Below, one piece after another: positions 4,086-14,566 of a DNA stretch of 64,000 nucleotides. Position numbers and translations under genes: made by a program. This DNA is from Corallococcus caeni. GTDB lineage: Bacteria > Myxococcota > Myxococcia > Myxococcales > Myxococcaceae. The DNA lies in NCBI RefSeq assembly GCF_036245885.1, contig NZ_BTTX01000008.1. The stretch is one strand, 5' to 3'. Each line of letters opens with the position of its first letter. Position 1 is the stretch's first letter. The notes beneath the pieces were generated by a model, which made no database searches, was not told the origin of the DNA, and saw only the letters and a program-made list of their open reading frames with translations.

Positions 4086-5615
4086 GTGCGGATCGGATTG
4101 AAGCGGTGGTGGGAGCTGGGCCAGGTGGCCCGCGCCTCCACGCGCCTGCGGCGGGTGTCCCGTCCCCAGGACGAGGAGCGCGTGCGGCGCGAGCTGACCC
4201 AGCGGCTCCTGGGACTGCGGGGACTGCCCCAGAAGGTGGGCCAGGTGCTCACGCTCGCGGAGCTGGGCGCGGAGACGCCGGGGTTCGGTTCGCTCGCGGA
4301 GGCGCCCTCCCCGCTCGCGCCGGAGGACGCGCTGGCGGAGGTGTCCCGACGACTGGGCCGCCCCTGGCAGGAGGTGTTCACGTCGCTGGAGGGCGTGGGC
4401 CTCGCCGCGTCGCTGGGGCAGGTGCACCGGGGCGTGCTGCGCGACGGGCGCGCCGTGGCGGTGAAGCTGCGGCACCCGGGCATCGCGGAGGCCGTGCGGG
4501 ATGATCTGCGCGCGTTGGGCTGGCTGGCCGCGCCGCTGGGGGGCTGGCGCGGGAAGCTGGACATGTCCGCCTACCGCCATGAGCTGGCCCGGATGCTCCA
4601 GGGCGAGCTGGACTACCACCACGAGGCCCAGGCCCTGCGGGACGCGGGCGCGCGCATGGCGGACGTGCCGGGCGTCGTCGTCCCCGTGCCGGTGGACGCG
4701 CTCACCCGTGAAGACCTGCTGGTGATGAGCTGGGTGGAGGGCGCCTCGCTCGCGGACGGCTGGCGCTGGAGCGAAGCGGACCGCCGGGCGCTGTCCACCA
4801 CGCTGATCCGGCTGTTCCTCCACGGCTGCTTCATCTGGGGCGCGCTCCACGCGGATCCGCACCCGGGCAACTACCGCGTGTCCCGGGGGCCGGACGGCAA
4901 GCCCGTGCTGGGGGTGCTCGACTTCGGCTGCGTGAAGCCGCTGCCGCCGGAGCTGGCCGTGGGACTGGGGCGGTTGATCTCCCTCCTCCGGGCTCCGAAC
5001 GCCACGCCGCACCCGGAGCAGCTGCTGTCCGCGTGGGTGATGCTGGGCTTCACGCCGGAGCTGCTGGAGCCCATGACGGAAGCGCTGCCCGCCGTGAGCC
5101 GCGTGCTGCTGGAGCCCTTCCTCCGGGAGGGTCCCTTCCACGCGAGGAGCTGGCGGCTGGGAGCGCGGCTCACCGAGGCGCTGGGGCCGCACCGCTGGAA
5201 CTTCCGCGCGGCCGGGCCCGCGTCGCTGCTGTTCGTCCTGCGTGCGTTCCACGGGCTGGTGCGCCACCTGGACGTGCTGGATACGCCCATCGCCTGGGGG
5301 CCGCTGCTGGACGAGGCCCGTGCGCCATCGCTGCCCCCGCCGCCGTCGCCGCCCGAGACGTGGGTCGAAGGCACCGCGCGCTACCTGAAGGTCCGCGTGA
5401 CGGAAGCGGGGCACACGCGCGTCGCGCTGACCTTCCGCGCGGACGTGACGGCGCACCTGGAAGACCTGTTGCCGGAGGACCTGCCGCGCAAGCTCGCGGC
5501 GCGGGGCCTGGATCCGGTCGCCATCGGCGCGGCGGCAGTCGCGGCGGGGCTGCGGCCGGCGGAGCTGTTCCACCTGGACGAGGGCGACCGCCACGTCCGG
5601 GTCTGGCTCGAATGA
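4086..5615 (+). CDS. ABC1/UbiB (ADCK) family atypical protein kinase
   Basis: Motifs LGQVHRGVLRDGRAVAVKLRHPG and HADPHPGNYRV are typical of the ABC1/aarF kinase family. Lies between mcp and cheB. Confidence 0.7.
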   Translation: MRIGLKRWWELGQVARASTRLRRVSRPQDEERVRRELTQRLLGLRGLPQKVGQVLTLAELGAETPGFGSLAEAPSPLAPEDALAEVSRRLGRPWQEVFTSLEGVGLAASLGQVHRGVLRDGRAVAVKLRHPGIAEAVRDDLRALGWLAAPLGGWRGKLDMSAYRHELARMLQGELDYHHEAQALRDAGARMADVPGVVVPVPVDALTREDLLVMSWVEGASLADGWRWSEADRRALSTTLIRLFLHGCFIWGALHADPHPGNYRVSRGPDGKPVLGVLDFGCVKPLPPELAVGLGRLISLLRAPNATPHPEQLLSAWVMLGFTPELLEPMTEALPAVSRVLLEPFLREGPFHARSWRLGARLTEALGPHRWNFRAAGPASLLFVLRAFHGLVRHLDVLDTPIAWGPLLDEARAPSLPPPPSPPETWVEGTARYLKVRVTEAGHTRVALTFRADVTAHLEDLLPEDLPRKLAARGLDPVAIGAAAVAAGLRPAELFHLDEGDRHVRVWLE

Positions 5616-5637
5616 AAGACAGACAAGGAGGTGACGG

Positions 5638-5973
5638 ATGGTCACCATCGGCATGAACTACGAGGTGCGTGAGGGCAAGGCGGAGGCCTTCGAGCGGAAG
5701 TTCGCGCTCGTCCTGGAGGCGATGCGGACGCTGCCGGCGCACGCGCACACGGAGCTGTTCAAGAGCGTGGGGGCGCCGGGGCGCTACCTCATCGTCTCCG
5801 AGTGGCACAGCCGCGAGGGCTTCGACGCCTTCGTCGCGTCCGAGGCCTTCCACCGCGTGACGGACTGGGGCGCGAGCGCCATCCTCGCGAGCCGGCCGCG
5901 CCACGAGGTGTATGGCGATGCGGCCTCCAGCGCCCCCGCGGGCCGCTGCCCGGTCGCGCACGCGGTCCGGTGA
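5638..5973 (+). CDS. ABM (antibiotic biosynthesis monooxygenase) domain protein
   Basis: 111 aa with the ferredoxin-like ABM signature (VTIGMNYEVREGKAEAFE...YLIVSEWHSREGFDAFVASEAF). Upstream GGAGG Shine-Dalgarno. Confidence 0.65.
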   Translation: MVTIGMNYEVREGKAEAFERKFALVLEAMRTLPAHAHTELFKSVGAPGRYLIVSEWHSREGFDAFVASEAFHRVTDWGASAILASRPRHEVYGDAASSAPAGRCPVAHAVR

Positions 5974-5984
5974 CGCGAGTGCGA

Positions 5985-7049
5985 ATGAACCCCATCCGGG
6001 TCCTGGTGGTGGACGACGCGGCCGTGGTGCGGCGGCAGGTGTCGCTGCTGCTGGACGCGGATCCAGGCCTGGAGGTCGTCGCCACCGCGCCCAACGGCCG
6101 CATCGCGCTGGCGAAGGTGGAGCAGTTCCAGCCGGACGTGGTGCTGCTGGACCTGGAGATGCCGGAGCTGGACGGGCTGGAGACGCTGAAGCTCCTGCGC
6201 CAGCGCGCCCCGGACCTGCCCGTGGTGATGTTCAGCGCGCTCACCGAACGCGCCGGCATGCTGACCCTGGAGGCGCTCGCGCTGGGAGCCCGCGACTACG
6301 TGACGAAGCCCACCTCCGCGGGCGGAATGAACATCACGGTGGAGGCCGTGCGGGACGAGTTGGTGCGCAAGCTCAAGGCGCTCAACCTTCGCCCCTCTTC
6401 CGCCACGATGTTGCCGTTCCCCGTGACGCGCGCACCCCAGCCCCGGCCGCTGGTGCCCGCGCGGGTGGAGGCCATCGTCATCGGCGCGTCCACGGGAGGC
6501 CCGGGTGCGCTGGTGCGCGTGGTGTCCGCGCTGCCAGCGGACCTCCCGGTGCCGGTGCTCGTCGTGCAGCACATGCCGCCCCTCTTCACGCGGCTGCTCG
6601 CGGAGCGGTTGCAGGGCGTGAGCCCGCTCCGCGTGCGCGAGGCCGTGACGGGTGCGTCCGTGCACGCCGGCCAGGTGTGGGTGGCCCCCGGGGACTTCCA
6701 CCTGGCCGTGTGCCGGGACGCGACGGGCGTGCGGCTGCTCACGCACCAGGGGCCGGCGGAGAACGCGTGCCGTCCGGCGGTGGACCTGCTCTTCCGCTCG
6801 GCGGCGGAGGTGTACGGCGCGGGGGTGCTGGCGGTGGTGCTCACCGGCATGGGCCAGGACGGGCTGCGCGGCTGCCGCAAGGTGAGCGAGGCGGGCGGTC
6901 AGGTGGTGGTGCAGGACCAGGCCAGCTGCGTCATCGGCAGCATGCCGGGCGCGGTGGAGCAGGCAGGGCTCGCGGATGCGGTGGTGCCCCTGGACGCCCT
7001 GGCCCTGGAGCTGGTGCGGCGCGTGGATCCACGCGGACGGAGGACCTGA
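5985..7049 (+). CDS. cheB: Chemotaxis response regulator protein-glutamate methylesterase CheB
   Basis: REC domain (RVLVVDDAAVVRRQ...DVVLLDLEMPELDG) plus methylesterase domain (GASTGGPGAL...VVQHMPPLFT...GMGQDG). The start is an internal ATG of a longer ORF. Confidence 0.85.
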   Translation: MNPIRVLVVDDAAVVRRQVSLLLDADPGLEVVATAPNGRIALAKVEQFQPDVVLLDLEMPELDGLETLKLLRQRAPDLPVVMFSALTERAGMLTLEALALGARDYVTKPTSAGGMNITVEAVRDELVRKLKALNLRPSSATMLPFPVTRAPQPRPLVPARVEAIVIGASTGGPGALVRVVSALPADLPVPVLVVQHMPPLFTRLLAERLQGVSPLRVREAVTGASVHAGQVWVAPGDFHLAVCRDATGVRLLTHQGPAENACRPAVDLLFRSAAEVYGAGVLAVVLTGMGQDGLRGCRKVSEAGGQVVVQDQASCVIGSMPGAVEQAGLADAVVPLDALALELVRRVDPRGRRT

Positions 7050-7051
7050 GC

Positions 7052-7945
7052 ATGTCCCTGCTTGCCGACGACTTCGCGTACCTGCGGCAGCGCGTGCTGC
7101 GCCGCTCCGGGCTCGTGCTGGAGCCCGACATGCACGCGCTGGTGGAGACGCGGCTCATGTCGCTCCTGCGCGAGGAGCGGCTGCCGGACATCTCCGCCCT
7201 GGTCGCGCGGCTGCGCTCACAGCCGGAGAGCAGCCCGCTCCACCAGCGGCTGGCGGAGGCGCTGGCCAACCACGAGACGGCCTTCTTCCGCGACGCGCCC
7301 GTGTTCGACGCCCTGCGCTCCACGGTCCTGCCCGCCCTGCTGGCGAAGCGCTCCCGCACGCGCACGCTGCGCATCTGGTGCGCGGCGTGCGCCTACGGCC
7401 AGGAGCCCTACAGCATCGCGATGACGCTGGCGGAGGCCGGGCTGCTGATCACCGGCTGGACGGTGCGCATCCTCGCCACCGACTTCTCCGCGCGCGCGCT
7501 CGTGCGCGCCAGCGAGGCCCGCTACGACGCGCAGGAGATCCACCGGGGCCTGACGCCGGAGCTGCGCCAGCGCTACTTCCGCCCGGAGCGCGACGGGTGG
7601 CGGCTGAACGAACAGGTGCGCAGGCCGGTGGAGCTGCGGCCGCTCAACCTGATGGACGACTTCCCACCGGAGGCGCCGGTGGACCTCGTCTTCCTTCGCA
7701 ACGTGATGATCTACTGGGACGTGCCCACCCGGCGCGCGGTGCTCGCCCGCGTGCGGCGGATGCTCCACGCGGATGGCTACCTGGTGCTGGGCGCCGCGGA
7801 GGCCTCGCCCCTGGTGGAGGACGGCTTCACGCGGCACCTGATTGGTCAGACCAGCTGGTACCGCCCCACGCCCGCGCCCCACGCCAGCGCGAGCGCGCCG
7901 GTGGAGGACGCGCCGCGCCCGCCCCGCTCCGGCGCTAGACCTTGA
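7052..7945 (+). CDS. cheR: Chemotaxis protein methyltransferase CheR
   Basis: CheR N- and C-terminal domains (ETAFFRDAPVFDALRSTVLP...RIWCAACAYGQEPYSIAM...VFLRNVMIYWD). ATG 2 nt after the cheB stop. Confidence 0.85.
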   Translation: MSLLADDFAYLRQRVLRRSGLVLEPDMHALVETRLMSLLREERLPDISALVARLRSQPESSPLHQRLAEALANHETAFFRDAPVFDALRSTVLPALLAKRSRTRTLRIWCAACAYGQEPYSIAMTLAEAGLLITGWTVRILATDFSARALVRASEARYDAQEIHRGLTPELRQRYFRPERDGWRLNEQVRRPVELRPLNLMDDFPPEAPVDLVFLRNVMIYWDVPTRRAVLARVRRMLHADGYLVLGAAEASPLVEDGFTRHLIGQTSWYRPTPAPHASASAPVEDAPRPPRSGARP

Positions 7946-8855
7946 GGCGGATGGCGCCGGGCAATATCGTCATGGTGCAGGGCAGCCGGCCCGGCGTCTC
8001 GCCGTCCACGTCCAGGAACACGTCGCCGTCCTCCGACTCCGCGTGGATGGTGCGGCAGCGCAGCCGCCGCGTGCCCTTCCAGGTGACGTGGTCGCCGTTG
8101 TAGACGCCCTTGGACTTGAGGACGAAGTCGGACAGGCCGTAGTTGGACCAGATGGTGACGTCGAAGAGGCCGTCGTGCGTCACCGCGTCGGGCGCGACGA
8201 ACATGCCGCTGCCGAAGTAGCGCCCGTTGGCCACGGCCACCGCGGTGACGCTCACCGTCTCCGGGGGGCCGCCATCCACCGTGAGGCGCACCTGCCGCTC
8301 CTGGTACTTCAGGAGGCCCTTCACGGTGCCCCACATGAAGCTCAGGTTGCCGCCCAGCGCCTTGCTGCCCTGGTTCACCTCGCGGGCCACCACCGCGCTC
8401 ACGCCGAACGAGGCGATGTTGGCGAAGAAGCGCGTGGCCGGGTTGCCGTCGTTGTCGATGAACTCCAGCCGCCCCACGTCGAAGGGCTCCGTCTTCTCCG
8501 TGCGCAGCCGCTCCAGCGCGGACGTCAGCTCCAGGTCCCACCCGAAGGTGCGGCGGAAGTCGCCGCCGGTGCCCCGGGGCAGCAGGGCCAGCGTGGCCTG
8601 CGGGTTGATGACCTGCCCGTCGCGGAAGAAGCCGTTGGTGACCTCGTTGAGGGTGCCGTCGCCGCCCACCGCGACGATGCACTCATAGCCGTCGTCGATG
8701 GCCTGCCGCGCCAGACGCGCCGCATCCATGCCGCCGCTGGTGAAGCCGTGCCCGAACTCACCGAGCACCTTGCCCACCAGCGCGGAGATCTCCACCCAGC
8801 GCTTCCCCGTCTGCCCGTTGGCGCTGCGCGGGTTGACCACGAGGAACGTCTTCAT
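7935..8855 (-). CDS. Diacylglycerol/lipid kinase catalytic-domain protein (YegS/DAGK_cat family)
   Basis: MKTFLVVNPRSANGQTG...IVAVGGDGTLNEVTNGF is the DAGK_cat signature. Convergent with cheR, with an 11-nt overlap. Confidence 0.75.
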   Translation of the reverse strand: MKTFLVVNPRSANGQTGKRWVEISALVGKVLGEFGHGFTSGGMDAARLARQAIDDGYECIVAVGGDGTLNEVTNGFFRDGQVINPQATLALLPRGTGGDFRRTFGWDLELTSALERLRTEKTEPFDVGRLEFIDNDGNPATRFFANIASFGVSAVVAREVNQGSKALGGNLSFMWGTVKGLLKYQERQVRLTVDGGPPETVSVTAVAVANGRYFGSGMFVAPDAVTHDGLFDVTIWSNYGLSDFVLKSKGVYNGDHVTWKGTRRLRCRTIHAESEDGDVFLDVDGETPGRLPCTMTILPGAIRLKV

Positions 8856-8916
8856 TCAGTGCCTTCTCCCTGCGAGAACGGCTTGTTTACGCAATTGTGC
8901 GCCCAGGCTCCACTCC

Positions 8917-9687
8917 ATGACCCACAGGAGGGCCCCGAGGCCCGGGGTGTTTGTCACCCGGACTGCTTCGTGCTGGGCTTCCCGCCCCCCGCTTCACCCC
9001 GGACCCCGAGTGAAAGCCCCCGCCTCCACCGAGCAGCTCGCTCCCCACCGGGAGGCCACGCGCGCCCTGGACTGGGCGCTGCCCGCGCTCCGGGCGGACC
9101 TGGCGGCGGCGGCGAGGCAGCCCTTCCGGGAGACGGGCGCCCAGGAGGACTTCCTCCTCCGCCATGACGCACCAGCCCATGAACCCCAGGGGCCGGCGCG
9201 GACGGAGCGCTTCGAGCGGGCCCTGGGCCGGGTGCGGCGGCTCGCGGACGCGGGCGAGCCGCTGACCTTCCCCCGGATGGTGGAGGTCCAGTCGGAGCTG
9301 CTGGGCGGGCCCACGGGCTTCCGCACCGGGGACGCCTTCGCGTGGGGCGGTGCGCACCGCTACGCGCACGTGCCCGGCCTGGAGGCGGCCTTCCGCGAGA
9401 AGGTGGAGGCGGACGCGCGGGAGGAACGCCATCCGGTGGCGCATGCCACGCGGTTGTACCTGGACCTGTGCTTCTTCCACCCCTTCCCGGACGGCAACGC
9501 CCGCGCGGCGCGGCTGTGGTTGGAATACATGCTGCGCCGGGGCCGGCTGCCCACGCCGCCGCTGGCGCCCGTGGTGCTGTGGCCCAAGCATCCGGGGGAC
9601 GCGGTGAACTACACGCGGCTGGCAAGGCTGCTGGCCCGGAGCATCGCGGGGCCGGACGCCCCGTGCCGCAACGAGGTGCCCGAATGA
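8917..9687 (+). CDS. Fic-domain protein with non-canonical core motif HPFPDGNARAAR
   Basis: Fic core helix YLDLCFFHPFPDGNARAARLWLEY. Candidate starts are the in-frame ATG at 8917 and a GTG at 9010. The stop overlaps the next start (ATGA). Confidence 0.7.
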   Translation: MTHRRAPRPGVFVTRTASCWASRPPLHPGPRVKAPASTEQLAPHREATRALDWALPALRADLAAAARQPFRETGAQEDFLLRHDAPAHEPQGPARTERFERALGRVRRLADAGEPLTFPRMVEVQSELLGGPTGFRTGDAFAWGGAHRYAHVPGLEAAFREKVEADAREERHPVAHATRLYLDLCFFHPFPDGNARAARLWLEYMLRRGRLPTPPLAPVVLWPKHPGDAVNYTRLARLLARSIAGPDAPCRNEVPE

Positions 9688-10349
9688 GCAGCAACGCTTC
9701 GGCTTTCACGTGGCGCCGCATCCGCGACAGCCTGGATGCCTATGCGCCGCAATCCCTGGCGGCTCGGCTGCGGGAGGCCCTGGCCCCCTTGCGGTCCGGC
9801 AGCATCCATCAGGCCCGGCTCAAGCAGGCGAAGAACGCCGTGAAGGACCTGCTCCAGGCCGAACTGGGGCCCTGGTACATCGAGAGCGGACTGCCCCTGG
9901 GCAACGAAGTGCTGGGGGGATATTGCTGGTGTCACTCGTTCTTCAACCAGAACCCGCCGCATCGGACGATGGACGTGGATGCGAACATCCAGCTCATGCT
10001 GGAGGCGCTGGAGCGGATCCGTTCGTTCCTGTACGCGCTGGACGGCGTGTACCAGACCGCGCGCCGTCAGCTCGAGCTGGCGGCTGACGACCAGGCGCTC
10101 CGGGAGAAGGCGCTCGCGGAAGGGCTGGTGCGGACCGTGGAGTTGACGGCGGAGACGACGTCCTGTGAGGAGACCTGGTACCAGGTCGCGCAGGACGCCA
10201 TGTCGTGGTGCATCGAGGCGATGGGGCTGCCCCTGTCGGACGCCACGCAGGAGCAGCTGGACACCGCCTTCGTCTTCGAGTCGTGGATCGCGCCCGCCCC
10301 GGAAGCCCTCCGGACCGCGGCGGCGCGGGTGGCGGAGGTGGCCGTATGA
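9684..10349 (+). CDS. Hypothetical protein, paralog A of an unrecognised family (conserved GGYCWCH / CEE motifs)
   Basis: 221 aa with high third-position GC. Start overlaps the Fic stop and its stop overlaps paralog B's start, both as ATGA. About 45% identical to the downstream ORF. Confidence 0.6.
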   Translation: MSSNASAFTWRRIRDSLDAYAPQSLAARLREALAPLRSGSIHQARLKQAKNAVKDLLQAELGPWYIESGLPLGNEVLGGYCWCHSFFNQNPPHRTMDVDANIQLMLEALERIRSFLYALDGVYQTARRQLELAADDQALREKALAEGLVRTVELTAETTSCEETWYQVAQDAMSWCIEAMGLPLSDATQEQLDTAFVFESWIAPAPEALRTAAARVAEVAV

Positions 10350-11041
10350 GCAGGTCGGCCCTGGGCCATTGGCTGCGCATCCGCGACAGCCTGGATGGGT
10401 ATGAGCCGGAGAAGCTCATCCGCCTGCTGCGTGAATACCTGGCACCGCGCGTGCCCCCGGGGACGCGCAAGCTCACGGACGAGCAGCACGACACGATGGC
10501 CAAACACATCCAGCGGCTGCTCCACCAGAACCTGGGGCCCTGGTACACGGAGACGGGCCTGTATCTGGGCAATGAGAGCTTCGGCGGCTACTGCTGGTGT
10601 CACCGCTTCTTCAGGCAGAAGCCCACGCCAAACATGGACGTGGAATACAACATCCAGCTCATGCTCGACGCGCTGGAGCGGTCGCGCCAATGGCTGTTCA
10701 AGCTGGACGCCCACTTCGAGGCGCTGAAGCGGGACCTGCCTTCGGGTCCGGACGACCACGACATCCGGACGCTCGCGCTGTCGGAGGGAATCGTCACCAC
10801 GATGAACCTCACCATGGAGGCCACGGGCTGTGAGGAGGCCTGGTCCACCTTCGCGGACGAGGCGCTGGCGTGGATGTTCGACGCCATCGGCCTGCGGCCG
10901 GGCTATCAGGCCGGCAAGCTGATGCGAAAGCTGTTCGCCTTCGAGTCCTGGCACTCACCCTCCGAGGAGGAGCTGCGCGGCTCGGCGGAGAAGGTGGCGG
11001 CGGCCGTCGTGGAGGACGAGGGCCACCGACACAAGCACTGA
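10346..11041 (+). CDS. Hypothetical protein, paralog B of the same unrecognised family
   Basis: 231 aa. Shares the core LGPWYxExGLxLGNExxGGYCWCHxFFxQxPxxxMDVxxNIQLMLxALERxR with paralog A. Start overlaps A's stop (ATGA). Confidence 0.6.
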   Translation: MSRSALGHWLRIRDSLDGYEPEKLIRLLREYLAPRVPPGTRKLTDEQHDTMAKHIQRLLHQNLGPWYTETGLYLGNESFGGYCWCHRFFRQKPTPNMDVEYNIQLMLDALERSRQWLFKLDAHFEALKRDLPSGPDDHDIRTLALSEGIVTTMNLTMEATGCEEAWSTFADEALAWMFDAIGLRPGYQAGKLMRKLFAFESWHSPSEEELRGSAEKVAAAVVEDEGHRHKH

Positions 11042-11058
11042 GCCGCGCGCCCGTCCCG

Positions 11059-11724
11059 TCAGTGGATGGGCTTCCCAGGCTTCAGCCGGGTCTTCTCGCT
11101 CGAGCCGCCCTTCACCTCGATGCGCTTGCCCTGGATCACCTGCTCCGGGAGCTTCAGGGAGATCTCCAGCACGCCGTTCTCGAAGTTCGCCTGCACCGTC
11201 TCCAAATCGATGTCTTCCGGAATCGGGATGACGCGGCGGAAGGAGCCGCTGCCGCGCTCCAGGCTCCAGACCCCTTCGGCCTCCTCTTCCTCCTCCACCT
11301 CGAAGCTGCGCTCGCCTTCAATCACGAGCAGGTCCTTCAGCAGCTCGACGTGGATGTCCTCCTGCTTCATGCCCGGCAGGTCCGCCTTCACGATGAGGTT
11401 GCCGTTCCGCTCCAGCACGTCCACCTGCGGCGACCAGAGGCCTTCCTCCAGCAGGCCACCGCGGAGGCCGAGGCCCCGGCCTCCGAAGCCGGTGACGAGC
11501 TGGTCCATGTCCTCCAGCATCCGCCGCAGCAATCCGAACGGGCTCGCGGGAATGGCCTCACGGCCGAGGGCCTGTGCAAGGGACTCGCGGCGGGTGATGC
11601 CAGCGCCCGTCCTGGGCTCCTGGGCCTGCAAGCCACCGCCCTGCACGTCGGGCTGGGCGTTCTTCACGCCGGGCGGGGAAGAAGGCCCCCCCTGGGCCCC
11701 CGGGTTCTTGTTCGCGGTTGCCAT
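11059..11724 (-). CDS. Hsp20/alpha-crystallin family small heat-shock protein with long Gly/Pro/Arg-rich N-terminal extension
   Basis: Alpha-crystallin domain (SPQVDVLERNGNLIVKADLPGMKQEDIHVEL...GVLEISLKLPE). A GGAGGA Shine-Dalgarno lies 7 nt upstream of the ATG at 11724. Confidence 0.75.
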   Translation of the reverse strand: MATANKNPGAQGGPSSPPGVKNAQPDVQGGGLQAQEPRTGAGITRRESLAQALGREAIPASPFGLLRRMLEDMDQLVTGFGGRGLGLRGGLLEEGLWSPQVDVLERNGNLIVKADLPGMKQEDIHVELLKDLLVIEGERSFEVEEEEEAEGVWSLERGSGSFRRVIPIPEDIDLETVQANFENGVLEISLKLPEQVIQGKRIEVKGGSSEKTRLKPGKPIH

Positions 11725-11890
11725 TGACGTCCTCCCCCGGTGGCGTCCGGCTGGCGCCCGGCCGCTGGACCGCCCCGGTGACTCGAGCGGGGATGGGATT
11801 ATCCCACCCTCCAAGTTGGCCGCGCCCCCGGGAGGCATCAAGGGTCCGGGGCTGGCGAGCCCCGGTGTCTGCCATTGGAGGGAGCCCCCG

Positions 11891-12778
11891 CTACGCGAGC
11901 AGCGTGGCGTCCATCACGGTCAGCGCCACGCCGCCCACGCGGGCGCGCTCGATGTGGCCCGGCCGCCCGGTGACCTGGATGTCGATGCGGCCCGGCTTGC
12001 CCAGCGTGTCGCCCTGCTCGATGCGGCTCGCCACCGTGCCGCCTTCCGCTGGCAGGCGAAGGCTCCCGTGCTCGGCGAGGTACGCCGCCAGCGGCCCTGC
12101 GGCGGAGCCCGTCACCGGATCCTCCAGGATGCCGAACCCCGGGACGAAGTAGCGCGCCTGGGCCACGCTCCCCTCCTCCTTCGCCTCACGGGTGAAGAGG
12201 TAGACGCCTCGCAAGCCGTGCGGCATCAGCAGCGCGTTCATTGCGGCGCCTCGCGGCGTCAGGGCCTCCAGGTCCGCGAGCCGCAGGAGCGGCACCACCA
12301 GCCGGTGGCCCTGGCGGATCACCGGCAGCGACGGGTCCACCTGCGCGGCCGTCCCGCCGAGCGTCGCCATCAGCGCCTCCAGCGCCACGGGGTTGGGCTG
12401 CACCGGCGGCTGGGGCGTGGTGATCCACACGCGAGTCCCACGGCCGCCCTGGGGCTCCAGCTCGATGGCGAACGTGCCGCCGGGGCACTCCAGCGTGTAC
12501 GTCCCCGGGCTCTTCAGCAGCCCCTTCTCCGCGAGCAGGTGGAAGGTGGCCACCGTGGCGTGGCCACAGAAGGGAATCTCGTCCACGGGCGTGAAGTAGC
12601 GCAGGCGCACGGTGGCGTCGCCGGGCCGGGACAGGAGGAAGGCGGTCTCCGACGCGCTGACGGCCGCGGCGGTCCGCTGCATCGTGGGGACGTCCAGCGC
12701 CGAGGCGTCGAGCACCACGCCCGCGCGATTTCCTGCACCGGCGGTGCGGGTGAAGGCATCGATGATGTGGACCTGCAT
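11891..12778 (-). CDS. PhzF-family (phenazine biosynthesis-like) isomerase
   Basis: MQVHIIDAFT...GNRAGVVLDA...ETAFLL...LRYFTP..EIPFCGHATVA are PhzF/DAP-epimerase-fold hallmarks. Confidence 0.8.
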   Translation of the reverse strand: MQVHIIDAFTRTAGAGNRAGVVLDASALDVPTMQRTAAAVSASETAFLLSRPGDATVRLRYFTPVDEIPFCGHATVATFHLLAEKGLLKSPGTYTLECPGGTFAIELEPQGGRGTRVWITTPQPPVQPNPVALEALMATLGGTAAQVDPSLPVIRQGHRLVVPLLRLADLEALTPRGAAMNALLMPHGLRGVYLFTREAKEEGSVAQARYFVPGFGILEDPVTGSAAGPLAAYLAEHGSLRLPAEGGTVASRIEQGDTLGKPGRIDIQVTGRPGHIERARVGGVALTVMDATLLA

Positions 12779-12922
12779 GGGCGGACTCCGGACAGGGGAA
12801 GGGCCTGGGGAACAGCGCAGGCATGCTCCGCTCCGGTGTTGCCGTCAAGCGCCGGACCGACGTGCCGGGACGCCGCACAACGGGGTTGAACAGGAGCGCG
12901 CAAGCAGGCACAGCGGTAGCAC

Positions 12923-13699
12923 ATGGGTTTCCTGAAGCGAGGTGGGTGGGTGGTGCTGGTGGTGCTGCTCCACGCGAGCGGCGCGGTGGCACAGATCGTC
13001 AACGTGCAGGCGCTCTTCGACGAGAAGGCGGAGCTGGGGCCGGCCGCGGCCATCGAGCTGGGCGGCGACTGGCGCACGGGCAGCACGCAGCTGTTCTCGA
13101 TTCGCGGCTCGCTGGTGGGGCAGCTGCGCTCGGAGCGTGAGGTCTGGCTGGGCGTCATCCGGGGTGAGTACTCGTTCGCCAGCGGCGAGCGGATCGTCAG
13201 CCAGGTGCTGGAGCACGTGCGCTACCGGCGCCCGTTCAGCGACCTGCTGTCGGGCGAGGTCTTCGCGCAGCACGAGTACAACGAGTTCCGCCGGCTCCAG
13301 CTCCGGATCCTGCTGGGCGCGGGTCCCCGCTTCGTGCTGTTCAACGAGGAGGCCACGGGGCTCACCTTCGGCGTGGCGCTCATGCTGGAGCACGAGCGGC
13401 TGCGCAAGGACGGCGAGCCGGACGCGGGAGACCGCTACACGGATCCGCGCGTGTCCAGCTATCTGCTGGGACGGGTGAGGCTGATGGAGAACATCCATCT
13501 GGTGGAGACGGTCTACTTCCAGCCGCGCGTCACCCGCCCCTCCGACCTGCGCGTGCTCAACGAGACGCTGTTCGCGGTGACGCCCAACCCCCGGGTCACG
13601 GTGGGCATCGGCTTCAACCTCACCTACGACAGCGCGCCGCCCGCAACGGTGCCGCCGCTGGACACACAGCTGCGGACCACCGTGGGCGTGAAGCTGTAG
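12923..13699 (+). CDS. Putative outer-membrane beta-barrel protein (DUF481-like) with signal peptide
   Basis: N-terminal signal peptide (LVVLLHASGAVAQ), alternating beta-strand pattern and C-terminal aromatic residues. Family call is tentative. Confidence 0.55.
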   Translation: MGFLKRGGWVVLVVLLHASGAVAQIVNVQALFDEKAELGPAAAIELGGDWRTGSTQLFSIRGSLVGQLRSEREVWLGVIRGEYSFASGERIVSQVLEHVRYRRPFSDLLSGEVFAQHEYNEFRRLQLRILLGAGPRFVLFNEEATGLTFGVALMLEHERLRKDGEPDAGDRYTDPRVSSYLLGRVRLMENIHLVETVYFQPRVTRPSDLRVLNETLFAVTPNPRVTVGIGFNLTYDSAPPATVPPLDTQLRTTVGVKL

Positions 13700-13714
13700 G
13701 AGTAGACTCCGGCC

Positions 13715-14566
13715 ATGGCCTCCCATCCCGTTCCCGCACCCGTCGCCCTCCTCGGAGGCGGCAAGCTCGCCGAAGCCATCATCCAGGGGCTGCTGCGCTC
13801 CGGCCACGCGCGCCCGTCCGACCTCCGCGTCACCGTTCGCCGGCCCGAGCGCGGCGAGGAGCTGCGCTCCCGCTACGGCGTGCACGTCCTCATGGACAAC
13901 GCGCAGGCGGTGCGCGGCGCGGCGGTGGTCCTGCTGGTCGTCCGACAGGCGCAGATGCGCGAGCTGATGGCGCTCATCTCCCCTGCCCTGGAGGCGGGGC
14001 AGGCGGTGGTGTCGCTGTCCGCGGACGTTCGGCTCGCGCAGTTGGAAGCGGCGCTGCCGTTCAGTGTCTCCGTGCTGCGCGCCATGCCCCACACGCCCGT
14101 GCGCGTGGGCGCGGGGGTGACGCCCCTGACGCCCGGGACGCGGGTGACGGAGACCGCGCGGCGGGCCACGGAGTCCCTCTTCGCGGCGACAGGCCGCCCG
14201 CTGTGGGTGTCCGAGGAAGCGCTCACGGTGTGCACGGGCGTGTCCGGCACGGGCCCCGCGTATGTCTTCCGGTTCGTGGAGGCGCTGGCCCAGGCCGCGA
14301 TGGCGCACGGGATGGACGCGGCGGAGGCGGCGGAGCTCGCGCGGGGAACGCTCATCGGCGCGGCGAAGCTGCTGGCCGAACCGGACGCCTCCACGCCACG
14401 GCTCATCGCGGAGGTGGCGACTCCGGGAGGCATCACCGAGGCGGGGCTGAAGACGCTGGAAGCCCAGGGCCTCTCCCGCGTCGTGGGTGAGGCGGTGTCC
14501 GTCGCCATCCAGCGCACGCGGGAGCGCGCGGACGCCTCCGCCGCGGCCTACGTCACGCCGAAGTGA
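13715..14566 (+). CDS. proC: Pyrroline-5-carboxylate reductase
   Basis: NADP-binding N-terminus (LLGGGKLAEAIIQGL) and ProC C-terminal dimerisation region (ATPGGITEAGLKTLE). Confidence 0.85.
   Translation: MASHPVPAPVALLGGGKLAEAIIQGLLRSGHARPSDLRVTVRRPERGEELRSRYGVHVLMDNAQAVRGAAVVLLVVRQAQMRELMALISPALEAGQAVVSLSADVRLAQLEAALPFSVSVLRAMPHTPVRVGAGVTPLTPGTRVTETARRATESLFAATGRPLWVSEEALTVCTGVSGTGPAYVFRFVEALAQAAMAHGMDAAEAAELARGTLIGAAKLLAEPDASTPRLIAEVATPGGITEAGLKTLEAQGLSRVVGEAVSVAIQRTRERADASAAAYVTPK

Follow-up and report, generated by a model that had tools for sequence, protein, structure and literature searches.

A previously undescribed family of predicted helical proteins, duplicated beside a Fic-family gene of Corallococcus caeni, as candidate dedicated partners of Fic enzymes

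The active site of Fic enzymes is marked by the canonical motif HxFx(D/E)GNGRxxR (PMC3667792), and the Fic proteins of classes I to III are controlled by an inhibitory helix that carries the motif [S/T]xxxE[G/N] (PMC3667792, PMC13327609). About a tenth of the enzymes with the canonical motif lie outside these three known inhibition classes (PMC3667792), which raises the question of how such enzymes are controlled. The same question is posed by a locus of Corallococcus caeni, lying in a stretch of 64,000 nucleotides of contig NZ_BTTX01000008.1 (assembly GCF_036245885.1; this whole stretch is referred to as the window), in which a Fic-family gene is followed directly by two tandem genes, here named A and B. 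Judged by sequence comparison and by a structural model, A and B are duplicate copies of an undescribed family of helical proteins of ~220 amino acids (aa), and what is new here is a partner domain family, previously undescribed, in a Fic two-gene module. We favour, with a probability of about one half, the reading that A and B act as antitoxin-like, dedicated regulatory subunits of the Fic enzyme.

The features of the locus are collected in Table 1. A first-pass annotation, made from the sequence alone, described A and B as open reading frames (ORFs) that are ~45% identical; this is borne out by BLASTP, which aligns the two proteins over their full length with 100/222 identities (45%, E=1e-65), and every motif that was quoted is found (WxRIRDSLDxYxP, LGPWY...GNE..GGYCWCH.FF, NIQLML.ALER, CEE.W and FxFESW). 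The stop codon of the Fic gene overlaps the start of A in an ATGA at 9684-9687, the stop codon of A overlaps the start of B in the same manner at 10346-10349, and each of the two starts is preceded, 6-8 nt upstream, by a Shine-Dalgarno-like GAGG/GGAGG box. The GC content of the window is ~70% and that at third codon positions (GC3) is 0.90-0.93 in the called frames. Pairwise ratios of non-synonymous to synonymous substitution rates (dN/dS) against orthologs are 0.32-0.51 for A and 0.21-0.53 for B, the upstream Fic gene giving 0.20-0.31 and the YegS/DAGK gene on its flank 0.10-0.24, and the best homologs of both proteins come from Corallococcus species. Because of the GC3 values, the dN/dS ratios and the arrangement of ATGA overlaps and ribosome-binding boxes, A and B are real genes under purifying selection. 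(Most of the other overlapping long ORFs listed for the six frames are high-GC artefacts.)

By this layout Fic, A and B make up one translationally coupled operon. The three genes are adjacent, co-oriented and coupled through the ATGA overlaps at the Fic/A and A/B junctions, as the genes of type II toxin-antitoxin systems are, and Fic and partner genes also overlap or abut at distant loci. The promoter region is presumed from the ORF layout; a sigma-70 consensus site was sought in 8856-9009 and none was found.

Table 1. Coordinates, in the window, of the genes and sequence elements discussed in the text.
Feature	Position	Strand	Description
YegS/DAGK-like gene	7935-8855	-	Divergent from the Fic gene
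Intergenic region, presumed promoter region	8856-9009	n/a	Separates the divergent YegS/DAGK-like gene from the probable start of Fic; from ORF layout
Fic-family gene	9010-9687	+	225 aa from GTG 9010; PF02661 and subfamily HMM
FRTGDAFAWGGAHRY, flap-position segment	9319-9363	+	Position of the Fic target-docking beta-hairpin; R113, A117, G122 and Y126 invariant (subfamily alignment)
Fic active-site motif HPFPDGNARAAR	9478-9513	+	His, Asp, Asn and both Arg present; second Gly of GNGR is Ala
Gene A	9684-10349	+	221 aa; Fic-partner family; the younger, dispensable paralog
Loop GNEVLGGYCWCHS of A	9900-9938	+	Candidate metal-binding cluster (E75, C81, C83, H84); from conservation
TSCEETWY of A	10158-10181	+	Family Txxx[D/E][A/S]WY motif; contains the 'CEE' Cys161
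FVFESWIAP of A	10269-10295	+	Family FxSWxxP motif; from conservation
Gene B	10346-11041	+	231 aa; Fic-partner family; the ancestral-type, always-retained paralog
Loop GNESFGGYCWCHR of B	10568-10606	+	Candidate metal-binding cluster; from motif position
TGCEEAWS of B	10823-10846	+	Family Txxx[D/E][A/S]W motif; Ser in place of the usual Tyr
FAFESWHSP of B	10934-10960	+	FxSWxxP motif; from conservation

The product of the upstream gene is a member of the Fic fold, matching PF02661 with 35.4 bits (cut-off 24; E=2e-8). It also scores 263 bits on a hidden Markov model (HMM) of its own subfamily, the members of which reach 117-278 bits and generic Fic proteins 59 bits at most. Its ORF is open back to ATG codons at 8917 and 8698 (~31 codons separate GTG 9010 from 8917). 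We consider GTG 9010 the most likely start because the frame upstream of it is unconserved, orthologs shifting frame or carrying a stop there (at one related locus, L009, a stop codon directly precedes the equivalent GTG), and because homologous Fic proteins elsewhere are 207-221 aa long; the automatic annotation thus probably over-extends the gene at 8917-9009. The subfamily is recognised by the conserved segments FRxGxAFAKxGxERY and, further towards the C-terminus, YLDxCFFHPFxDGN[A/G]RAARL. Its catalytic residues (His, Asp, Asn and both Arg) are invariant and its flap-like segment is conserved; in a model of a fused homolog a beta-hairpin lies at 350-359, ~48 residues before the Fic motif, and the flap-position segment of the window enzyme is the putative flap. 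Most members read GNAR rather than GNGR, the latter being found at locus L026 and in the protein P0099, while the Fic protein of L025 reads NGNSR. In this last enzyme (L025:5687-6325, next to the partner P0118) the active-site sequence is HPFENGNSRAAR, with Asn in place of the metal-binding Asp/Glu and Ser in place of the second Gly, and it may be inactive or re-purposed with its partner kept. The inhibitory motif [S/T]xxxE[G/N] was sought in the cognate Fic proteins of the subfamily and has no conserved occurrence among them.

The case for a dedicated partnership rests on the wider family to which A and B belong. An exhaustive profile HMM search over 1.84 billion cluster representatives returned 220 representatives at E<=1e-3, 68 of them at E<=1e-10, most of the distant homologs coming from metagenomes, and the best 150 of the 220 were examined. 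Among the family are 24 fusion proteins of 374-550 aa (23 cluster representatives and one cluster member), in which the partner domain is N-terminal and the Fic domain C-terminal and in which the Fic half scores 127-245 bits on the subfamily HMM. One further fusion, which comes from Actinoplanes and carries the annotation 'Fic family protein', was found separately, and a third homolog search, with at least 8000 candidates, added little beyond two named fusions. All of the fused Fic halves and all of the Fic genes beside stand-alone partners belong to a single subfamily (FFHPFxDGN[A/G]RAAR).

Where the two proteins are separate, both gene orders occur. Fic precedes the partner at L017, L019 to L021, L022 and L024, where the partners carry a CxCH cluster, and also at L093 and L094, where they have no Cys cluster; the partner precedes Fic, in the same order as in the fusions, at L025, L026 and L027, where it carries WCCxxH. 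At L023 the contig ends too early to judge the Fic neighbour. A single orphan was encountered, P0039 (L092:2388-3098), with no Fic gene within ~2.4 kb upstream and 4 kb downstream; its Cys cluster is lost (DWRL) and both signature motifs described below are degenerate (DDWVH for DAWY, FKSGTIP for FxSWxxP), as if the gene were decaying after the loss of Fic. Generic Fic loci served as a negative control only: they came from a metagenome scan with a Fic alignment and the pattern HPFxDGN[AG]R, which returned unrelated Fic proteins only, and 0 of the 64 have a true partner, the weak HMM matches falling on the Fic ORFs themselves. Because adjacency is conserved in both gene orders and is accompanied by fusions, there is strong evidence from these comparisons for a physical and functional partnership, and very probably the family is an obligate Fic partner that would form a complex with the enzyme. 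To this extent the first-pass annotation, which proposed a heteromeric complex with the neighbouring enzyme, was well directed.

Partner and enzyme are both constrained and the partner evolves the faster of the two, with dN/dS of 0.2-0.5 against 0.2-0.3 for Fic and with identities that fall to ~43% where that of Fic is 63%. The types of module also co-vary. In the Fic-first modules the Fic motif ends in AARLW and the partner carries CxCH at five of the seven loci that were examined, the exceptions being L093 (where Fic reads AARLG) and L094, whose partners have no Cys cluster; in the partner-first or fused modules Fic reads AARLA and the partner WCCxxH. Such a pattern agrees with enzyme and partner having diversified together. 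Some members are longer: P0076 (L024:424-2013), P0077, P0091 and P0093, of 504-529 aa, have the partner domain at the N-terminus and a C-terminal extension of ~300 aa with no Pfam match, and P0076 follows a Fic gene and lies beside a HEPN/nucleotidyltransferase toxin-antitoxin pair.

What A and B are not is also informative. Neither protein is matched by any model of Pfam, NCBIfam, PADLOC or PHROGs, and a Pfam scan of 138 family members gave the Fic domain only, and that in the fused members only. The AlphaFold2 (AF2) model of A (predicted local distance difference test score, pLDDT, 86.9; predicted template modelling score, pTM, 0.86) is all-helical, with ~10 helices, and has no relative among solved structures. 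A search of all PDB chains with the A1 profile at E<=10 retrieved no Fic antitoxin chain, the VbhA, EcFicA and AntF complexes being PDB entries 3shg, 5jff and 8wt0. A match in the PDB to artificial multi-copy RecA fusions (3cmu and others; E=7.6e-8) was rejected as an artefact because it is to multi-copy fusion chains and a single RecA C-terminal domain gives E=0.59 against the A1 profile. The idea that A and B are degenerate Fic domains was likewise dismissed (hhalign probability 0.4%). We found no description of the Fic-partner family in the literature.

The residues that define the family were examined in an alignment of 134 sequences, made up of the 132 cluster representatives that reach 180 aa, together with A and B of the window. 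Near-universal positions are G62, W64, T159, D/E163, W165, Y166, W175, G181, F198, S200, W201 and P204, and the strongest signatures are W64, the motif Txxx[D/E]AWY (T159 80%, D/E163 90%, W165 99%, Y166 84%) and the motif FxSWxxP (F198 95%, S200 99%, W201 98%, P204 95%). At the Tyr166 position Ser is found in B of the window and in P0025, the homolog closest to it (EEAWS), as against the Tyr of most of the family (EEAWY). The high conservation of three hydroxyl-bearing residues, S200, T159 and Y166, raises the possibility that the partner is a substrate or acceptor of Fic and is modified at one of these positions, in cis in the fusions, where the joining of enzyme and acceptor would make self-modification efficient. 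Invariant Ser, Thr and Tyr residues within Trp-rich motifs are, however, equally expected of a folded core or of an interface, and B itself departs from the family at Y166. Moreover, we know of no precedent among Fic systems for a dedicated substrate without another recognisable function, which counts against this explanation, and we regard it as quite improbable.

The first-pass annotation had described a conserved core that contains Cys and His residues and had read the CxCH sequence, together with a distal Cys, as a metal or redox cofactor site. The residues C81, W82, C83 and H84 are indeed invariant in 29 close homologs, and across the alignment the cluster takes the form CxCH in 46 sequences, CCx(1-3)H (typically WCCxxHS) in 50 and CxCC or CCxxD in eight; eight sequences have no Cys there and in 20 the region falls outside the local alignment. 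The cluster is thus present in ~78% of the family. Its exchanges of His for Cys or Asp are the behaviour expected of a metal ligand, and Glu at position 75 (the 'GNE' motif), found in 42 of the 49 members of the CxCH group, offers a fourth conserved candidate ligand, making it plausible that a metal-binding loop is common in the family. In the model of A this loop is the least confident part (pLDDT ~69).

The distal Cys of the proposal did not hold up. Position 161 is Cys in 42% of the family, Thr in Pyxidicoccus, Ala in most fusions and mostly Ala in the WCC branch; since just 25 of the 49 CxCH members have Cys there, it was rejected as a fourth metal ligand. An intermolecular Cys site shared with Fic was rejected because the cognate Fic proteins have no conserved Cys in common. 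Neither the haem c motif (CXXCH) nor the CDGSH 2Fe-2S motif fits the spacing of CxCH and WCCxxH, no third Cys being found at the CDGSH spacing, and the set conserved in the CxCH branch, E75, C81, C83 and H84 only, does not suit a four-ligand zinc knuckle.

Nor are the Cys and His residues the functional core. Two members, P0040 (VSSY at this place) and P0053, have no cluster and yet adjoin Fic genes with intact motifs; P0040 occupies the syntenic site of another genome, which is probably that of a related myxobacterium given the shared YegS/DAGK synteny. Homologs of this kind, without the Cys and His residues, are what the first-pass annotation had itself named as grounds for refuting its proposal. 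Because these two still pair with an intact Fic, the cluster is a dispensable accessory. The same observations bear on the notion that A and B are autonomous metal or redox enzymes whose proximity to Fic is incidental, a notion for which the wide occurrence of the cluster and its ligand-like substitutions might be cited. It is largely refuted and we give it hardly any credence: the association with Fic is systematic and extends to fusions, members without a cluster persist beside intact Fic genes, conservation is strongest at Trp, Ser and Pro residues rather than at Cys and His, and no solved enzyme fold resembles the partner.

The history of the duplication shows how the two copies differ in standing. 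A scan of close relatives, with one genome per species, yielded 16 related loci, all from Corallococcus, Pyxidicoccus, Citreicoccus or a Myxococcaceae metagenome-assembled genome, and in all 16 the gene directly after Fic is a partner and the syntenic position is the same, with the YegS/DAGK gene divergent upstream and Hsp20 and PhzF downstream. Two partner copies, A-type and then B-type, are present at eight of the loci and one copy at eight, the single copy being always B-type or, in Pyxidicoccus, of an outgroup type. The A clade is separate and long-branched in a distance tree. C. praedator and RDP092CA are without A, and their B proteins are nearest to the B of C. terminator and C. carmarthensis, which carry A; in C. 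coralloides KYC2213, A is truncated to ~150 aa, of which the first 141 residues alone align to A. On the grounds of these copy counts, the tree, the two genomes without A and the truncation in KYC2213, the B-type is the ancestral and indispensable copy, and A a younger, faster-evolving tandem duplicate, confined to some Corallococcus and lost repeatedly. An obligatory heteromer of A, B and Fic, as the first-pass annotation might have implied, is therefore unlikely from the genomes compared, since half of the 16 have one partner and A has been truncated or lost more than once.

We interpret these observations by supposing that the partner would bind the Fic enzyme stoichiometrically and, when bound, would control its nucleotidyl-transfer (AMPylation-type) activity, thereby playing the role that falls to a small antitoxin in class I and to an internal helix in classes II and III. 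This regulatory reading is preferred because the partner is always co-encoded and translationally coupled with the enzyme, because it evolves faster than the enzyme, because it is duplicated, or lost only as an extra copy, and because it exists in split and fused forms, as is found for class I and class II Fic. The Trp-rich elements W64, Txxx[D/E]AWY, W175 and FxSWxxP would be the first choice for a surface that contacts Fic or is otherwise functional, and the E-x5-CxCH loop would be a structural and possibly sensory metal site, kept by many lineages and lost by some. On this reading B is the indispensable copy, and A, a tandem duplicate that arose within Corallococcus, serves as an accessory or back-up; the reading as a whole carries the probability of about one half given above.

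Much of the same evidence may be read in the opposite sense, with the partner as a positive subunit, either an activator or an adaptor for target recognition, and with A and B as alternative specificity subunits of one Fic enzyme. The association and the fusions are accounted for equally, a protein of 220 aa with a conserved, aromatic-rich surface resembles a binding module more than a plug, the asymmetric divergence of A after duplication has the look of specificity diversification, and the partner has no canonical inhibitory Glu motif. That A has been lost or truncated repeatedly while Fic and B stay is better matched by redundancy, however, and the Fic proteins have intact catalytic residues and no other visible brake. 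We hold a positive role to be unlikely, though serious enough to be kept in view.

Several points weigh directly against the regulatory reading. The inhibitory motif [S/T]xxxE[G/N] is not conserved in the partner (182 family sequences); the nearest motif, T159xxx[D/E]163[A/S], has Asp in 75% of cases, followed by Ala or Ser, and in the model of A it lies in a loop before a helix, so that its resemblance to the inhibitory motif is a lead and not evidence. The AF2 model of a natural fusion has confident domains but a pTM of 0.55 and a disordered linker of 30 residues, and it gave no confident interface between partner and Fic. The window partner is encoded downstream of Fic and is four times larger than known Fic antitoxins, and the module has been inherited vertically at a syntenic position, whereas toxin-antitoxin loci are typically mobile. 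The association was established from the side of the partner family, and the evidence fits inhibition, activation or targeting alike. A bolder extension of the regulatory reading would make this a fourth mode of Fic control, by a large helical subunit, split or fused, whose Cys2-His metal loop senses redox state or metal availability, whose D/E163 enters the Fic active site to toggle it between modifying and de-modifying activities, and of which A and B are two differently tuned switches; this we consider speculative and rather improbable.

The first-pass annotation also raised immunity-like diversification. Polymorphic toxin loci typically have the toxin gene first and tandem copies of the immunity gene after it, and myxobacteria are rich in polymorphic toxin/immunity systems, both of which would suit a scheme in which Fic is an exported interbacterial toxin, A and B are its immunity proteins and the extra copy reflects diversification of immunity. 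One fused homolog, moreover, adjoins an SpvB/TcdB/RHS gene. This is P0099 (L018:5001-6281), with a canonical GNGR, which lies directly upstream of the gene for a protein of more than 2000 aa (L018:6368-11281) with SpvB, TcdB-midN, FG-GAP and RHS domains and is preceded, with it, by genes for a TPR protein and a hydrophobic 296-aa protein; L018 may be linked to a toxin-complex locus. The window Fic, on the other hand, is a bare domain of ~225 aa without a trafficking or secretion domain, and its locus is not a secretion locus, the operon having CheB, CheR, YegS/DAGK, Hsp20 and PhzF as neighbours. The 24 covalent partner-Fic fusions are hard to square with a toxin that is exported and leaves its immunity protein behind. 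The locus occurs as a single copy at a syntenic position among housekeeping genes, and a search for plasmid, phage or viral-contig relatives found none. Immunity to an exported toxin is accordingly very improbable, and of the earlier suggestion it is the operon logic that survives, the fusions and the stable chromosomal synteny opposing the remainder.

The flanks of the operon, over window positions 4086-14566, are ordinary chromosomal genes. Upstream are an ABC1 kinase, an ABM monooxygenase, CheB, CheR and the YegS/DAGK lipid kinase, and downstream are Hsp20, a PhzF-like isomerase, DUF481 and a pyrroline-5-carboxylate reductase; the small heat-shock gene is convergent with B, and 18 bp separate the two. 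A different setting is seen at L019:383-8176 (also L017, L020 and L021), from a metagenomic lineage with a GC content of ~54%, where the Fic-partner pair lies inside a co-oriented, tightly packed string of genes for two acyltransferases, a phosphoenolpyruvate-utilising (PPDK_N/Rph-like) enzyme, an S-adenosylmethionine methyltransferase and polytopic membrane proteins. Such company hints at a pathway for lipids or small molecules.

The Fic-partner subfamily has been seen in Myxococcota, in Actinoplanes and in many metagenomes, with GC contents of 48-75%, and as a coherent and widespread group it belongs to the question of how Fic enzymes outside the three inhibition classes are controlled. Should the partner domain prove to be a regulator, it would provide a testable handle on the control of such enzymes and a new domain family worth defining, with the Cys/His loop suggesting a possible input signal. 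For annotation, ~220 clusters of 'hypothetical proteins' could become Fic-associated partner proteins.

It remains to set the module beside known systems. Zinc-centre redox switches with CxC motifs, of which Hsp33 is an example, recall the partner family in that a CxC(H) cluster lies in a flexible loop and that Cys or Asp takes the place of its His in some proteins; the partner differs in having three or four candidate ligands (E75, C81, C83, H84) and no second CxxC pair, in that the cluster is dispensable in some members, and in having no sequence or fold relationship to Hsp33-type proteins. With Phd-Doc and other type II toxin-antitoxin operons it shares the logic of translationally coupled bicistrons and a faster-evolving partner; unlike them, the partner has no detectable DNA-binding domain, the locus is chromosomal and syntenic rather than mobile, and the window enzyme is by its motif of the Fic and not of the Doc type. 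In class II Fic proteins (SoFic, BT_2513, FICD/HYPE and the M. marinum Fic 7cb8) the inhibitory element is a helix packed onto the Fic core, whereas the N-terminal domain of the fusions described here forms a 220-aa fold of its own, connected through a disordered linker, and comes from a family without [S/T]xxxE[G/N].

Of the known systems, the class I Fic toxin-antitoxin modules (VbhT/VbhA, EcFicT/EcFicA(YhfG) and Fic-1/AntF) come closest. Known class I antitoxins are helical hairpins of ~55-65 aa, encoded upstream of Fic. AntF has the form of a two-helix bundle (PMC13327609). A and B, by contrast, are proteins of 221-231 aa with ~10 predicted helices, lack the inhibitory motif, have no sequence or profile similarity to these antitoxins, and are encoded downstream of Fic and in duplicate; the Fic motif in most subfamily members is GNAR and not GNGR. 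The likeness lies in the architecture of the module: as in class I, a Fic protein without a built-in inhibitory helix stands beside a dedicated partner in a two-gene unit (PMC3667792, PMC13327609), one branch (WCCxxH) has its partner gene upstream of Fic, as antitoxins do, and the split and fused forms of the partner family mirror the relation between class I and class II (PMC13327609).

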